A DNA stretch of 53,185 nt, filler included, from Diploschistes diacapsis (Eukaryota), in the NCBI GenBank assembly GCA_023645945.1. It is 4 parts of 4 records of this genome, joined end to end, with 100 filler letters (N's around TTAATTAATTAA, not from the genome) between each part and the next. Parts side by side here need not be neighbours in the genome. Positions count along the whole stretch, not along the records: positions 39,978 to 53,185 come from JALAIB010000680.1; 3 more parts are not named here. One strand, written 5' to 3'. The notes under the pieces were generated by a model that made no database searches, was not told where the DNA came from, and saw nothing but the letters and a program-made list of their open reading frames with translations. A program made the position numbers and the translations under genes. Shown in pieces: positions 13,234 through 45,872 of this stretch; position 1 is the stretch's first letter; every line of letters starts with the position of its first letter.

Positions 13234-13333
13234 NNNNNNNNNNNNNNNNNNNNNNNNNNNNNNNNNNNNNNNNNNNNTTAATTAATTAANNNNNNNNNNN
13301 NNNNNNNNNNNNNNNNNNNNNNNNNNNNNNNNN
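13234..13333. other. Artificial contig linker (44 N + TTAATTAATTAA + 44 N)
   Basis: Stop codons in all six frames, flanked by equal N runs. Confidence 0.98.
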
Positions 13334-14133
13334 ATATAATACTTTAAAAATAATTATAAACGATAATATTTCGTTAATAATTAAAATATATTCGATCGTA
13401 GTTATTTACTTTTATTTTCCTTCAATAACTTTTTAATTCGAATTTATTCGACTCGAAACGGAAGCTGTAAAGAAAGAACTATTATTAATATTAAAATTTA
13501 ATTCGTTTATATTATAAATATCTTCGGGCGCGTATTATTTCTTATTATATTAAATTATTATTATATCGAACTACCGTTATATAACCTTGTAACTTACTAT
13601 ATTAAATTTATTCGACTCGATTTATCTCGTCAAAGTATTAGTAATTTTAAGAAATCGTTTGCGAAATCGCGATATTTAATATTTATCGATAAATTAAAGA
13701 TTCGCGATTATAATTTCTAAATTCGATCCGAATCGAATTCCTTCACGTCGAATTTCTTCGATGATATTTATTATTAACGTAAACGATATAAAAAAGCCGG
13801 TTTATATAAAACGTATAATTTATCGTATTAATACCTTTTTTTTAAATTTGGTAGGATTTAAATCGATTCGTGGCTATTAAAATTAAATTATTTTTTATTA
13901 AATCGATCTATAACGGTCGATCGAGAAACTTTAAATGCGCGAACGGCCGCTCGAATGCTGATATATAAATAAAAATTTAAAGCCTATAAATAATCATTAA
14001 TATCCGATTTTAATAATATCGAGTTATTTCGATACGAAGCGGTTATTATCAAGAAAAACCGAAAGAATGATGAATATCGCAATGTAAGGTGGCCGAGCTT
14101 TAGGGGTGGCCGAGCTGACCGTCAAACACGTTA
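13334..14133 (-). mobile_element. RIP-degraded Fot1/pogo-family DNA transposon (5' end; rest lost at the gap)
   Basis: Very AT- and TpA-rich. TA followed by a TIR-like ACGTGTTTGACGGTCAGCTCGGCCACCCCTAAAGCTCGGCCACC (14131-14088) with an internal direct repeat. Relic HTH-psq translation ISIRAAVRAFKVSRSTVIDRF at about 13960-13895. Confidence 0.85.
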
Positions 14134-39877: not shown

Positions 39878-39977
39878 NNNNNNNNNNNNNNNNNNNNNNN
39901 NNNNNNNNNNNNNNNNNNNNNTTAATTAATTAANNNNNNNNNNNNNNNNNNNNNNNNNNNNNNNNNNNNNNNNNNNN
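39878..39977. other. Artificial contig linker
   Basis: 44 N + TTAATTAATTAA (39922-39933) + 44 N. Confidence 0.98.
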
Positions 39978-41103
39978 GGTGGTGGTGGTGCGGTATATGT
40001 CGACAGCAGGTGTTAGGTACCGGGTGGAGAAGAAGGGCAGCGCAGGTACAGATGTGGGTGCTAGAGCGATGGGAATCAGGATGGGAGGAACAGCATGAAC
40101 GGACGGGCGAGCTAACAACCACTAGTTATAGCAGGGGAAACGAGACGGGGGAAGCCACCAGCTCTTCCCGTGTAAAGAGACCGCAGACCTTGAAGCGTGC
40201 AAGCATAGCGTGATCTGTTATTCTTCCGTCTGCAGCTAGCTCCTTTTCCCGCTTTGCTCATTCCCTTTGTGTGCTCGCGCGCTCGTGCTACACTTGGACA
40301 ACGCTCCGTTGTACGCCGAGCCTGAATCTCCACCGCAAAGAGCAGAAAAGTCCTTCGCTGCCGCCAGATAGCCCAACCACGACACCGCCTCGCGTATCCC
40401 CGAGAACAGCAACGACGCAAAACCATGGAATCCGGACAACGACAAAGCCACCATCACCACCATCCGATCGTATTATTCTTCAGTGCCCACCCATCATCAA
40501 CTAAGCTTGGAACCCCCCATTTGCACAAAACGAACGAAGGGGGAATCTACCGCCTAACCTGCCACGCGTAAAAGCGAAAACAAAGACTCGAATCGATCGG
40601 CCGTCTCCCGTAGCATTGCTGCCCTGTTGTTGTATTTCTAGTAAAATATAGTAGTGGATTTGCACTCTATCCTCAAACCCACCCAAACGCCGGGCCGAAT
40701 GCTGGAAAAGGCGCAGAACTGGTATCCCGAAGGGAGCAATCTGGATTTTAGTTCTGTAAAAGAGGAACCGTGACGCCGAGCTGGAATGTAAACAAGAAGA
40801 TAGACAAAGGAAATAATGGAAAAACTCGCAATTGGCTGGAATAGATGAGCCCCCCATTTTTTTTCTTTCGAAGTCTTGTTCGAAACTTTTGTAAGCTTCA
40901 GAACAGTGTCGATTTGCTTCTGTATAGTTCGGGAGGAGCGTCGTATTAAGGAGAGTAGAGCGATTAATATCTGTCGTATGGCCAGATATTTGTTAACCAG
41001 CGGTGGTTGCATGCCCATGCTGCCAAATCGGTGAACTCTTATCAGACCGAAGCAGTCGGCCCGTCCGCATGGCTCCAAAGCAACCATTCAGTAACGGGCT
41101 CGC

Positions 41104-43202
41104 TCATAGCTCCTCCCCAATGTGCGGCAGTCCAGCTCCCGCAACGTTCGCATTCACGGCATTCGTATTAATTGGCATACTCATGTTACCTTTCAGGTCT
41201 GGATTGCACGGCGGCGAATGCGTCTTGTGGTATTTCAAACCATTCAAGTTCTTGTATCTCTTGCCGCAGTGGTCGCATTTGTACGGCTTCTCCTTCTCCA
41301 TGCCCATTGTTCCCGGGTAGGGAGAAAGAGTCTCTGGGTTGACAATCGAGTACGTTCCGTCGGCGTTCTCATGCAGTTGCTGATTGTTATGCCCGTGCTA
41401 GAAAAGTATGAGCAAAAATGTTTTTTGGGTTAGAGGGCCGGAGGACGACTTACCGTTTTGTGGTACTTGAGGCCGTTCTGATTCTTGTATGCCTTTTCGC
41501 AACCAATCACAGGGCATCTGAAGGGCTTTGGTTCCTCGCCATTCAAAGTGTCGGCAAGTCCAACCTTCTGCTGCCGCTCTCGGATCCGCCGTGCGATGTC
41601 GCTATCGGGCCCATATTGTGCATTACCGAGCCGTTGATGCACCGTCTGCTGGTCTTGAAGTCCCGCATTTGGGCTGATGAGCCGCTTGGCGGGATCGTTG
41701 ATGTAAACCTCGGCAACATTACCGTCGTTGCCAAAGCCGAACGCAGGCATGTCCGTTTGCGGCATCATATAACCCGGGGTCTCCATGGACATGCTGCCCA
41801 CATCCCCCACGAACTCGGAATCCAGCTCGCGAGGCGTTCCCGGCGCAGATGAGTCCGGAGTCCTCAGCTGGTGCTGGCGAGGATGCGCGGTCAATGTTGG
41901 CGTGTTGACCGAGGAAACGGTGGGATTGCCATGGTACGGTCTTCCGCCAGCAGAAATAGGGGTACCGGGCTGCGACTGGCGGATCCCTTGGAAATTCTGC
42001 AGCGGATTCCCCAAGTTGTTTAGGTCCAACGGCGGGACCCTCCCCTGCTGCTGAGCAAATCCAGACTGCTGCCCGAACGCGTGCCCGTTGGCCAGAGGAA
42101 AGCCGCTGTTCAGGTTCGCCATCCCCATGCTCGGGTCAAAGTTGTAGTCGTCGATATCGTCCATTTCCATGTCCTCTACCGCTTCCATCTCCTGCGAGGC
42201 TTGATAGTGCGTCTTGCTCTGACCTGGAGTCGTATGTGCGCTTCGGTCGAGCCCCGTGTGCTGCAGCATCGATCCCGGTCGGGTCTGTATGGCAGCAAGG
42301 TTTGCGCTCGCATGAGGTGGTTGGCTTGCTTGAGCCGGAGTCGAGGGGGTGACGTTCTGCGCTTTGGGGGTTGTTTGCACGTTTGGCATTGCCATGCTCG
42401 AGTGCTCATGCTCGTAGTGCGAGAGGAGGTCATGCAGCGAGGGCAAGGTGATTCCACAGCAAGCGAAATCCCTCATGAAGTTTGCTTCGAGCTTTGGCAG
42501 GTACGACGAAGAATGGTATGATGGCGACCGGAAGCCTCCCGAGAATGGCGATGTACCCTGCATGACGATGCTACCAAGTCAACACGGACGCGCACAAACG
42601 GTGAGGACACAGACTTACTCGTTTTGGATCCAGCTGTTCATTGAGTTTCCTCCCCAGCTCATTCCAGCCATCAGGCTACCAGCCGCATTGCTCTCACGTC
42701 GTTGCTGCTGGCGCCCAGCATTGCCCATCGATATTGGCATGGCGCCGCTGGTGTACTGCGGTGTCAAGCCGGACATGCTGATCGAGTCATGACGCCCTTT
42801 ACCCGTGTCCGGTCGCATGATGTTTCCCGTTGCGCTATGCAGCGCGGAAGTTAGATTAGAACTGTAAGGCGCCGATGGATCGTTCCGCATAGCCGTCCCT
42901 GTCGGAGCAGTGCCATCCATGCTATCCAGCGGCGGCGACTGCCCAAACAGAGGAAATGGCGGTTCTTCCAAGTCAGAGTCGAGTATCGCAGAGTCGGCAA
43001 ATAGCTGCGGAGATTCGAACCCTGGCGAAGACCGGTGCCACGAGAAAAGCAGGTCCTTCTCTCGCGCAGCCTTTCGTGGGAAGGTGGATGCGCTAGTAGC
43101 CCTCGGGGTGCTGACTGGAGTGGTTTCTGCCGGTGATACGCGATCAAGTTCACTCGCGGTGGGTGAATGGAGTAAAGGTGGCGGAGTATCTCGGGAATCC
43201 AG
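41104..43202 (-). CDS. SFP1: Split C2H2 zinc-finger transcription factor Sfp1, 2 introns; first ATG 42920, candidate CTG start 43202
   Basis: YLPKLEANFMRDFACCG...LHDLLSHYE, KPFRCPVIGCEKAYKNQNGLKYH and EKPYKCDHCGKRYKNLNGLKYH. Introns 42618-42571 and 41453-41398. Confidence 0.93.
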
Positions 43203-43389
43203 CTTGAGAGATGACGGGTGGTAGTGGGATGTGTAGAAGAGGGCGAAACAGTATAAGGTAAGAGACGGAGCGGGGGGTGTTTTTTTTTATTCACTATGTG
43301 GCAATGCTAAGACTGGATCGTCGGTTTTCTATAGGCTGCTGTTTGTGGATATAAGTCCGGCGGCGCGAACCTTGGGTAGAGAAATTGGA

Positions 43390-43443
43390 TAGTAGAGTAG
43401 TAGTAGTAGTGGTGGTGGTGGTGGTGGTAGTGGTAGTAGTAGT
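43390..43443. repeat. Compound (TAG)n/(TGG)n microsatellite upstream of SFP1
   Basis: Direct reading: agtagtagtagtagtggtggtggtggtggtggtagtggtagtagtag. Confidence 0.85.
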
Positions 43444-43681
43444 TGGTGAGATGAAAATGGGAAGTGAATGAAGCCTTGTGATACAGTGGTAAAGCTGAAT
43501 GAAGGTCCTCCAAAAAGTATATCTACTACACCTCAAGAAGAACGAGATAGAAGAAGCAAGATGGAAATAATTCAGCGTCAAATTGATATTAATATTAGTA
43601 GTTAGTACCAGTAGTGTGGGAAGGAGCGACGTATGTCATAATGTTAGATTGGAGACATGGGAATATTATTATTGAATGGAT

Positions 43682-43722
43682 GAGAGAGAGAGTGAGAGAG
43701 AGAGAGAGAGGGAGAGAGAGAG
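43682..43722. repeat. (GA)n microsatellite
   Basis: Interrupted GA run. It reads as a CT-rich tract on the SFP1 sense strand. Confidence 0.85.
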
Positions 43723-45872
43723 TCGGGTCCAGCAATAGGAAATCACCATTATTATTACGGTACGATGGCCAAATAATATTAATCATTAATTCATTAATTA
43801 ATTAATTAACTTATTTAACTAATAACGGTCTCTTAATATTGCGCGCCACTGGACAAAGTCCGGCTCCCTGCACGCATTCCCATCCTCTACTGGCGCCCCC
43901 ATGCTCTCTCGATGGGATACATATTATGTACATTGATCAGATCAGATTCCCCCAACTCGATCATTGGCAGTCTTGTCATCCACTCACCACAAGGGCCTTT
44001 GCCGCGCATCCGCTTTCCTCTCCTTTGGCCTCGAACCTGCGCACCATGCTGGTGAGGAATGAGAGGATACGAGCGGTCGGCATGGGCCATGGGGTATAAG
44101 ATCGTGAAAACCGAAATGGGCGCCAAACACAACAAGAGGGCTAGACAGAGGCCCGAGATTCAAACCGGGACTGACACGGCTCTAGAAGTTCCTTGGAGGA
44201 ATTGCCAGGCCTAAACAGAAAGCTAGCAATGTTCCGTACCAATCGGAGGCCAATGGGCGACCAAGAATGGGCAATACAGTAAGCACTGTACCGAATTAGG
44301 CATCTTCTTTGCCATGCGACGGCCATGTGGGATCGTCTTACCCTCATCTCTTTCCAGACTTCCAGACTTCCCAGACTTCCAGTTGTGAACAAGGCTCGGT
44401 AAAGTCATGTAATCTTGTATCCGTTGTGTACCAGCAATATATACCGATGTTGATACGATCTTCTTTTTCCAGTTGCTAGGCAGTCCCTCTGCAAGGTTTC
44501 TCTTCATTGGCCAAGCTACAGAGTACGTCGTAGTTGGCTTCGCATCGTCCCATTCACACCGATCCCGCGGCCTCGGATGCCTTGCTCCTTTCCTAGTCTG
44601 TCCTGACCTGCCTAATTAGTTTGGATTAAGGTCGAAGCTTGACTCGCGTGGCAGAGGGCGAAACAAGGCCAACAATAATAAGCAGTGTTGATCACCGTTG
44701 TGGAATCCTCTTGCACTCAGTACAAGTCATGTTCTCACTGTTCAGTTTGCTGCAATCCACACTTTCAGTCTTCAGATCACCTTCGGCAGCTAGCCGTGTC
44801 GTGTGACACGTCCTTTGCACTGTCACTACCGGCTTGTGTCAGGTTGTTGGGACAAGAAGCCGCTTCTAGCCATTCCATGTGGTTCTTGCATCGTACGCTG
44901 TAAGCAATCTGCCTCAGAAGCTTGGGCCTCTACGTGTCGAAATTAAGACCGGCAAAGGTTTGACACAAAGCCCCAAATGCAACTCACGTAACCAATCATC
45001 AAGCTGGCCTCGTGGATGGGTGGCTCGAATCCCGTACTTTGTACTTGCAACTTTGTACTTTGCAAGTCGAATCACACCACAGGGATAATCACGTTTTGCT
45101 GTATCGCATTCGTGCCTGCCTCAATGAATGCGTGGGCATCTGCCGCCCGAAGTCGGAGAATGTATGAAAGAGGAAGCCAAAGCAGTAGTGTTGCCGTGGT
45201 AGCCACTGAGGACGGCTGCGAAAAGGAGCAGTTACCACACGTAATCCTGCTGTCTTGTTATTTTGCCTTTGCTGACCGCATCTCACCCTGCTGTCGGGTA
45301 TGTTGCCCGTAGACAAGCGTAACGGTAGGGATAATTGCAATCCCATCGCCCTGTAATAGCCGGGCTGTGGCCGAGGTAACGACTTCATCGCGGCAGATCG
45401 TAATGGAGGCTAGCTCTGAAATATAGGCATAAAGTGGTGCAAGAGGTGTCCGGTGTGCAAATTAGTTTTGATATCGCCTGCCTGGGTAGTGAAGCTGCTC
45501 GCGATTGTAAGCATGGCCTGACCTCAACTCGCTGCGTGAAAACCGCGGCGAGTGGGTATTTCTCATAACGTTGTGATAACCTCAAGCGAAGCCGTAAGGC
45601 TGATACTGTCGAGGACTGGCGATGTGACCCGCACAAACCTGAATACCTGTTGGATAAATTCACCACCTGGAGCAGTATATCGACTCTCTTCACTATCATG
45701 CTTAGGATCTCGGGCTGGTAGATGCGAAGAGTATAACCGTAGCCATCTGCAGAGCACTATGGTTTGTTTGCTGGACCATCGAATCCAAGCATACTACTGC
45801 TCATTCCCCTGACTCACCAAAAATAGCCCCTACTTACGCTGTGGTAGTAGAGAGCCACATCGGCCTGCAAAC

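Follow-up and report, generated by a model that had tools for sequence, protein, structure and literature searches.

A probable pair of starts, CUG and AUG, in an Sfp1-type regulator gene of Diploschistes diacapsis

We analysed a stretch of 53,185 nucleotides from the Diploschistes diacapsis assembly GCA_023645945.1, referred to as a whole as the window. The part of it that comes from JALAIB010000680.1 carries, on the minus strand, a gene for an Sfp1-type zinc-finger regulator. We propose that this gene probably gives rise to two proteins by leaky scanning, a CUG-started long form of 664 amino acids and an AUG-started short form of 570. Judged from its conservation among related lineages, the CUG itself is very likely the start of the long form.

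In the proposed mechanism, the mRNA would carry a leader of ~400–480 nt without any AUG, and scanning ribosomes would first meet the CUG at 43202, whose context (−3 A, +4 G) is favourable. Some of these ribosomes would begin translation there with initiator Met-tRNA and make the 664-aa protein, the first 94 residues of which would comprise a conserved Ser/Thr/Pro-rich module and then an acidic-hydrophobic stretch. Ribosomes passing the CUG would find no AUG in any frame until 42920, from which they would make the 570-aa protein that lacks the module. The weak first start would be a CUG in good context in the Lecanoromycetes and Dothideomycetes groupings, or an AUG with U at −3 in the Eurotiomycetes grouping.

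The gene and its open frame upstream of the first ATG

The gene has three exons on the minus strand of the window, and both introns run GTAAGT...TAG. Its parts and the proposed starts are listed here.

43287..43289, minus strand: in-frame stop TAA, which closes the frame upstream; no ATG between this stop and the CTG
43200..43202, minus strand: CTG, proposed start of the long isoform, context ctcaagCTGga; CTG in 29 of 29 non-ATG lineages
42921..43199, minus strand: N-terminal extension, 93 codons after the CTG, Ser/Pro-rich
42918..42920, minus strand: first ATG (M2), proposed start of the short isoform, context gatagcATGga
42619..43202, minus strand: exon 1, counted from the CTG; donor GTAAGT at 42618–42613
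42571..42618, minus strand: intron 1, 48 nt, GTAAGT...TAG; junction in agreement with spliced orthologues
41454..42570, minus strand: exon 2, ending within the first putative C2H2 finger
41398..41453, minus strand: intron 2, 56 nt, GTAAGT...TAG, interrupting the first finger
41104..41397, minus strand: exon 3, encoding the second putative C2H2 finger; stop TGA at 41106–41104

The first-pass annotation of this DNA had described an SFP1 frame that stays open upstream of the ATG at 42920, a run of 716 nt (minus strand, 43636–42921) without an ATG in any frame, and an in-frame CTG at 43202–43200 within tctcaagCTGg (C at −4, A at −3, G at +4). Each of these features was confirmed. The frame is open to 43286, and the stop that closes it sits 28 codons 5′ of the AAG preceding the CTG. 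The CTG in turn lies 94 codons 5′ of the ATG, and the translation given earlier from this codon is correct. The ATGs nearest to the 716-nt run are those at 43639–43637 and 42920–42918. From base composition, 7.2 ATGs are expected in 716 nt (probability of none ~7e-4), and 5000 first-order Markov simulations, in which dinucleotide content was kept, gave a mean of 5.0 ATGs, with none in 0.7% of the runs. The gap is the second-longest without ATG on the minus strand of the window, the longest being one that spans an N-masked, AT-rich block.

The pattern of sequence change shows the extension to be real coding sequence. Coding conservation 5′ of the first ATG, which the first-pass annotation had suggested looking for, was found: the ratio of non-synonymous to synonymous rates (dN/dS) is below 1, and indels occur only in multiples of three. 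The dN/dS of the extension is 0.06–0.31 in 15 of 18 pairs, comparable to the region after M2. Synonymous sites are saturated in the remaining 3 of the 18 pairs, two of which are the window pairs; in these three the proportion of non-synonymous differences is 0.20–0.35 against 0.74–0.85 for synonymous ones, and for the window pairs the values are 0.26–0.35, far under 0.75–0.85. Over the first 282 nt from the start, every indel measures 3 or 6 nt (8/8 groups of relatives), and the window extension has neither a stop nor a frameshift across its 94 codons.

An exhaustive phmmer search returned 108 matches, and a word-indexed search returned 11 longer relatives that cover 80–100% of the exon-1 translation, extension included. 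In all matches the similarity starts abruptly at (K)LDSxxTPPPLxxSP, and the sequence that automatic models place upstream of this point differs by species. Alignment with orthologues from three classes (Lecanoromycetes, Dothideomycetes and Eurotiomycetes) begins at the L of KLDS. The conserved blocks of the extension are LDSxxTPPPLxxSP, ExTPVxTP, DLLFSWHR and an acidic stretch followed by FPLF, and the window keeps every one of them. The richness in SP/TP sites noted in the first-pass annotation amounts to eight such sites. No Pfam family was found in the extension or exon 1. The SP/TP sites, with the acidic stretch and FPLF, lead us to guess at a regulated or activating module.

The window protein aligns end to end with several proteins named by NCBI 'Transcriptional regulator of ribosomal biogenesis proteins'. 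It is 57% identical to that of Xylographa trunciseda (705 aligned columns), 49% to that of Toensbergia and 45% to those of Zopfia and Exophiala. The best matches bear the names 'Transcriptional regulator of ribosomal biogenesis proteins', 'transcription factor SFP1' and 'split zinc finger protein', of which the Sfp1 and ribosomal-biogenesis names are automatic annotations. The translation shows both C-terminal CxxC/CxxxxC...HxxxH patterns. The Pfam zf-C2H2 score of the window protein is 17.9 bits, under the curated cut-off of 25.2, and orthologue P0004 scores 21.8 bits with zf-C2H2_aberr, under the curated cut-off of 27. The position of intron 1 is common to 12/12 loci examined. A tree of exon 1 places the window beside two database proteins and then Xylographa and Lambiella (support 97–100), and in the exon-1 protein region, extension included, the window is 76% identical to its nearest relative over 185 columns. 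The gene most probably encodes an Sfp1-type split-zinc-finger regulator, and the fungus is Lecanoromycete-like because of the grouping with Xylographa and Lambiella.

Yeast Sfp1 exerts TOR-dependent control over ribosomal protein and ribosome-biogenesis genes. The window protein resembles Sfp1 of S. cerevisiae and the fungal orthologues in the names of its matches and in its two putative C-terminal C2H2 fingers, the likeness to yeast being one of description and not of alignment. Named fungal orthologues are A. fumigatus AFUA_1g14750 (PMC10542180) and FgSfp1 (PMC11603076). TOR-dependent control of ribosome-biogenesis genes is reported for the Fusarium protein as well (PMC11603076). The published FgSfp1 model in that source has 287 aa and is maybe another orthologue.

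Conservation of the CTG and of the two-start layout

Metagenome contigs were scanned with an alignment of exon 1, which gave 80 loci. In 64 of these the match reaches the first or second residue of the query; in the other 16 it falls short of query residue 1–2, and these stand outside the lineage counts. The 64 loci and the window were merged at a threshold of at least 97% identity over the first 90 nt into 38 distinct lineages. The relatives with names are mostly Lecanoromycetes or Dothideomycetes, together with Coniocybomycetes, Sarea and Trizodia, or else Eurotiomycetes. Sordariomycetes and Leotiomycetes were not identified among the matches.

Two start states are found in the 38 lineages. 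In 29 the sequence is AAR-CTG-GA, and in the other nine an ATG stands at the codon aligned with AAR; these nine group with named Eurotiomycetes in the tree. In the gene tree of 75 sequences a single change between ATG and non-ATG suffices (branch support 87), from which we conclude that the CTG was inherited once and then kept. The tree was built without an outgroup and does not set the direction of the change.

The first-pass annotation had proposed that a near-cognate codon might be conserved at this position, and the comparison supports it. All 29 non-ATG lineages have CTG, to the exclusion of every other Leu codon. As a control, five further conserved Leu columns of these 29 lineages were compared, and CTG occurs there in 4, 8, 9, 9 and 14 lineages; the CTG share of exon-1 Leu codons is 28%. 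Since this control lies within the same sequences, the invariance of the CTG carries weight despite the shared ancestry.

The context of the codon is similarly fixed. A at −3, A at −2, G at +4 and A at +5 are invariant in the 29 CTG lineages, and −1 is always a purine (25 G, 4 A). The consensus block from −8 to +5 is CCGYNAARCTGGA, and upstream of −12 the information content falls to <0.5 bits. A crucial role of positions −3 and +4 has been described for Pezizomycotina (Ivanov et al. 2017, PMC5487733).

ATG-type relatives show what happens to the Leu codon when an AUG is present. Their codon 2 is TTG, TTC, TTT, CTC or ATC, and never CTG. Among database proteins, 47 begin with M six residues before [ST]PPPL, the named ones belonging to Chaetothyriales, Onygenales and Eurotiales; this comes from a fixed-spacing scan of 254 proteins in which indels blur the spacing, and only the M-started count is used. 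Residue 2 of these 47 is F in 18, L in 15, P in 9, R in 4 and W in 1, and the Met of M-started relatives aligns with the Lys just before the window Leu. Because codon 2 varies in the ATG lineages and in the M-started proteins, the Leu codon is constrained only where the ATG is absent.

The sequence upstream of the CTG is of a different kind. In the CTG lineages, counting ATGs in any frame, 2 are observed against 42.6 expected between −200 and 0, and 10 against 26 between −300 and −200; beyond −500 ATGs are as frequent as expected or more so. An upstream ATG is present in the sequence of 25 CTG lineages; in 24 of them the nearest one is at a distance of 187–726 nt, and in locus L038 it is at 45 nt. 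At the CTG-lineage loci the frame is closed by a stop 7–143 codons upstream, and L038 alone has an in-frame ATG after that stop and before the CTG; four loci are too short for this count. Close relatives differ in the 120 nt upstream by indels of 1, 2, 4 and 5 nt, as near as −11, and since these are not multiples of three the leader is non-coding. On this evidence the upstream region is best described as a scanned leader, neither coding nor intron.

At the other end of the extension, the Met of M2 is invariant (38/38 lineages), with a purine at −3 in 32/38 and G at +4 in 35/38. The spacer from the first start to M2 is ~93–137 codons long. In the CTG group it holds 8 ATGs, compared with 147 in an equal stretch after M2, and in the ATG group 0 compared with 46. 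The deficit holds in each of the 38 lineages (0 versus 12 in the window), and codon shuffling leads one to expect 42 spacer ATGs in the CTG group and 13 in the ATG group. One of the 8 CTG-group spacer ATGs is in frame and 7 are out of frame. The out-of-frame ones have poor or moderate context and open reading frames (ORFs) of 6–43 codons, of which five stop 5–11 nt before M2 and two pass it slightly. At the ATG-type first start, T occupies −3 in 9/9 lineages and G occupies +4 in 0/9. The layout, as read from these sequences, is one of a weak first start, an ATG-cleared spacer and a strong second AUG. The invariance of M2, its mostly strong context and the nearly ATG-free spacer indirectly support the leaky scanning suggested in the first-pass annotation.

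Public gene models do not reflect this start. We inspected 31 named models of the non-ATG clade, and the conserved start position is used by none; some have unrelated sequence added upstream, and others are labelled 'partial' or begin at M2. The Melanomma model, for example, is marked partial and begins KLDS..., and that of Coniosporium begins at M2. As all 31 inspected models have a wrong N-terminus, the 94-residue module is misrepresented in the databases for Lecanoromycetes and Dothideomycetes.

Several observations weigh against a CUG-started long form made alongside the short one. We infer CUG use and the existence of two isoforms from the sequence, and the 29 CTG lineages are one inherited state, not 29 independent events. 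In L038 an in-frame ATG is present 14 codons upstream of the CTG. Positions −6 to −1 (G-Y-N A-A-R) vary in a codon-like manner, so a start a few codons upstream is conceivable, and the window itself deviates from the consensus at −6 and −7, where it has C and T instead of G and C. Seven lineages have one out-of-frame ATG inside the extension, and one of them has an in-frame ATG as well. Three more divergent loci, L075, L077 and L078, have unrelated AUG-started N-termini in good context, with internal out-of-frame ATGs in two of the three. Because their N-termini differ, the two-start design is not universal. RNA structure downstream of the CUG was considered as a booster of initiation and rejected, since there is no conserved fold: the RNAalifold consensus of the 29 sequences from −12 to +72 reaches −0.05 kcal/mol and lacks compensatory pairs.

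Other explanations of the upstream frame

Three other explanations were weighed, each of which we consider improbable. The first is that an upstream exon with its own AUG is spliced onto tctctcAAG|CTG, in which case the ATG-free stretch would be an intron. Parts of the window sequence are compatible with this: no AG other than that of this AAG occurs from the in-frame stop to the CTG, a pyrimidine-rich tract precedes it, and ATG...GT pairs that keep the frame are present 0.4–1.8 kb upstream (for example ATG 44047/44083 with GTGAGT 43987, and ATG 44347 with GTAAGA). Automatic models of some relatives also splice in upstream exons, but the upstream parts of the public models, compared by eye, are mutually dissimilar. 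The first-pass annotation had named a splice at CTCAAG| as one example of what would overturn its reading. The junction is not conserved, the codon being AAA in 4/29 CTG lineages, and these four are nested among AAG ones, such that the acceptor is lost where the CTG is kept. An intron would not be depleted in ATGs, whereas the 200–300 nt upstream of the CTG are, and it would leave the CTG-only Leu codon and the invariant A at −3 and G at +4 unexplained. The implied introns, at 430–1800 nt, would also be far longer than the 48 and 56 nt of the gene's own.

A hint in the same direction comes from P0009 and P0225, two intron-free and presumably RNA-derived sequences of the non-ATG clade. They start MKLDS... 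and MHFSP..., with no added exon, and thus hint at a mature mRNA without an in-frame upstream AUG. Their M stands at the Val and Leu of relatives, as if an ORF caller had taken GTG or TTG.

A still less probable explanation is that the AUG at 42920 is the sole start in this species and that the open frame upstream of it is an untranslated relic. CUG starts are generally inefficient, and a protein that starts at M2 is evidently viable in nature, as loci L062, L063, L071 and L072 indicate. However, a relic is hard to reconcile with the window extension, which is intact, retains all of the conserved blocks and belongs to an exon-1 region 76% identical to that of the nearest relative. Its non-synonymous differences are well below the synonymous ones, and the CTG is retained together with A at −3 and G at +4.

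Least probable of the three is a start at another nearby non-AUG codon, either the AAG at 43205 or, further upstream, a near-cognate codon particular to a lineage, such as GTG where many relatives have Val. In 28/29 CTG lineages the Leu comes after Val-Lys or Ala-Lys, with GTG at −6 to −4 in 10 of these 28 and GCG in 7, and database ORF callers begin some proteins at that Val. Yet the same three positions read GTA, GTT, GTC, GCG or CTC in many lineages, no near-cognate codon just upstream of the CTG is conserved across the CTG lineages, and the AAG at 43205 is the sole other in-frame near-cognate codon between stop and CTG in the window. The Lys codon is AAA in four lineages, which is not near-cognate, and AAG is reportedly among the poorest near-cognate starts in work on Neurospora start codons. 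The frame-breaking indels from ~−11 upstream argue against any start further 5′.

Known systems, divergent loci and the upstream region

The CUG start proposed for Sfp1 is of a kind already known from cpc-1, and Sfp1 is most likely a new instance of it. The frame 5′ of the AUG of cpc-1 (Neurospora crassa CPC1) is described as conserved in 100 homologues, with the CUG present in 73/100 and an ACG in 98/100 species, and the non-AUG starts have in vitro and ribosome-profiling support (PMC5487733). The two cases share a fungal transcription regulator, a conserved frame upstream without an in-frame AUG, a near-cognate codon that spans classes, and detection by comparison. They differ in that cpc-1 has several near-cognate codons interleaved with two AUG upstream ORFs (uORFs), whereas Sfp1 has a single invariant CTG at the edge of conservation and no AUG uORFs near the start. 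Unlike cpc-1, Sfp1 has a sister clade with an adjacent weak AUG, as well as a spacer, cleared of ATGs, that leads to a strong second AUG. The cpc-1 starts are backed by in vitro and profiling data, while the Sfp1 case is known from comparative sequence.

IDI-4 of Podospora anserina, a bZIP factor, has a proposed CUG start that is conserved in a relative (as cited in PMC5487733); it is likewise a fungal transcription factor, from a different protein family. Leaky-scanning genes of Cryptococcus and Neurospora, as described by Wallace et al. 2020 (PMC7049704), combine a weak first AUG with a strong in-frame second AUG to give two isoforms, and near-AUG starts (AUU, ACG) in strong context are also reported there. 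Those cases are mainly aminoacyl-tRNA synthetases with a mitochondrial targeting extension, whereas the Sfp1 extension is Ser/Thr/Pro-rich and acidic and belongs to a nuclear regulator. The first start of Sfp1 also switches between CUG and weak AUG among classes, unlike in those genes. We found no literature linking Sfp1 with non-AUG or alternative starts in a search that largely excluded subscription journals.

Sfp1 couples nutrient signalling to ribosome production. If the module comes only from a weak, tunable start, the cell would have a direct route from translation-initiation status to ribosome-gene transcription. A CUG in good context and an AUG in poor context, one codon apart, appear to be interchangeable leaky starts, with the spacer and the second AUG fixed. 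The ratio of isoforms would be expected to follow start-codon stringency. A more speculative idea, which we regard as doubtful, is that Sfp1 acts as a gauge of start-codon stringency: acceptance of the weak start would set the ratio of long to short form, of which only the long one would have the phosphorylatable Ser/Thr-Pro and acidic module, the state of eIF1, eIF5 and eIF2 would thereby feed back on ribosome synthesis, and selection would have kept the two-start layout while the identity of the weak start could be swapped.

Some loci depart from the layout with a CTG. L059, L064, L068 and L070 have an ATG-type start (...M[LF][ED]Y.ESPPPL). In the Penicillium-like loci L062, L063, L071 and L072 a stop lies 4–10 codons before M2, which is the sole start, and therefore the M2 form can be the whole protein. 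The extension exon was not found in the 1.5–2 kb of upstream sequence available for L062, L071 and L072, and these three have an ATG-free leader of ~580–635 nt. Among the database models P0186–P0254, every Penicillium and several Aspergillus models inspected (543–575 aa) begin at the second Met (MTGAAPIDI...). The Penicillium-type lineage seems, from these sequences, to have lost the N-terminal module that A. flavus, A. niger and A. wentii keep. L044, L066, L073, L076 and L080 are truncated at contig ends or hard to interpret.

The sequence upstream of the CTG in the window contains four further features.

43203..43636, minus strand: putative 5′ leader, ATG-free in three frames
43390..43443, minus strand: trinucleotide repeat (CTA/CCA)n, 18 copies, within the putative leader
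43682..43722, minus strand: CT dinucleotide tract (GA on the plus strand); the ATG-free zone starts ~45 nt downstream
43778..43823, minus strand: AT-rich block of ATTA/TTAA repeats, upstream of the CT tract; role proposed from its position

The CT tract is a pyrimidine box, a type of element found ahead of transcript starts in filamentous fungi. The order of AT-rich block, CT tract and ATG-depleted zone would fit a promoter, and the AT-rich block is a possible TATA-like promoter region. Two AUG ORFs of 4 and 14 codons (minus strand, 43658–43644 and 43639–43595) sit at the 5′ boundary of the ATG-free zone, and their status as uORFs hinges on the position of the transcript start.

The leaders of related lineages, including L065, L067 and L069, retain short stretches of conservation well 5′ of the start. 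In L045/L047 and L043/L046, two groups from the Dothideomycete part of the tree, a pair of blocks, CAGTCATCYG...GAGTCGCC, is found ~60–100 nt 5′ of the CTG. In L014/L016 a block with a TCGAG...CTCGA inverted repeat is found ~55–80 nt 5′ of the CTG. Such blocks could be leader structures or binding sites.

Elsewhere in the window, N-masked runs at 13235–13333 flank a short TTAATTAATTAA stretch. After them, at ~13330–14020, comes a block very rich in AT and poor in G, in which neither strand has an ATG for ~800 nt. This block looks like a degraded repeat, possibly of the repeat-induced point mutation (RIP) type. A further run of masked N lies at ~39930–40120, inside ORFs downstream of the Sfp1 gene.

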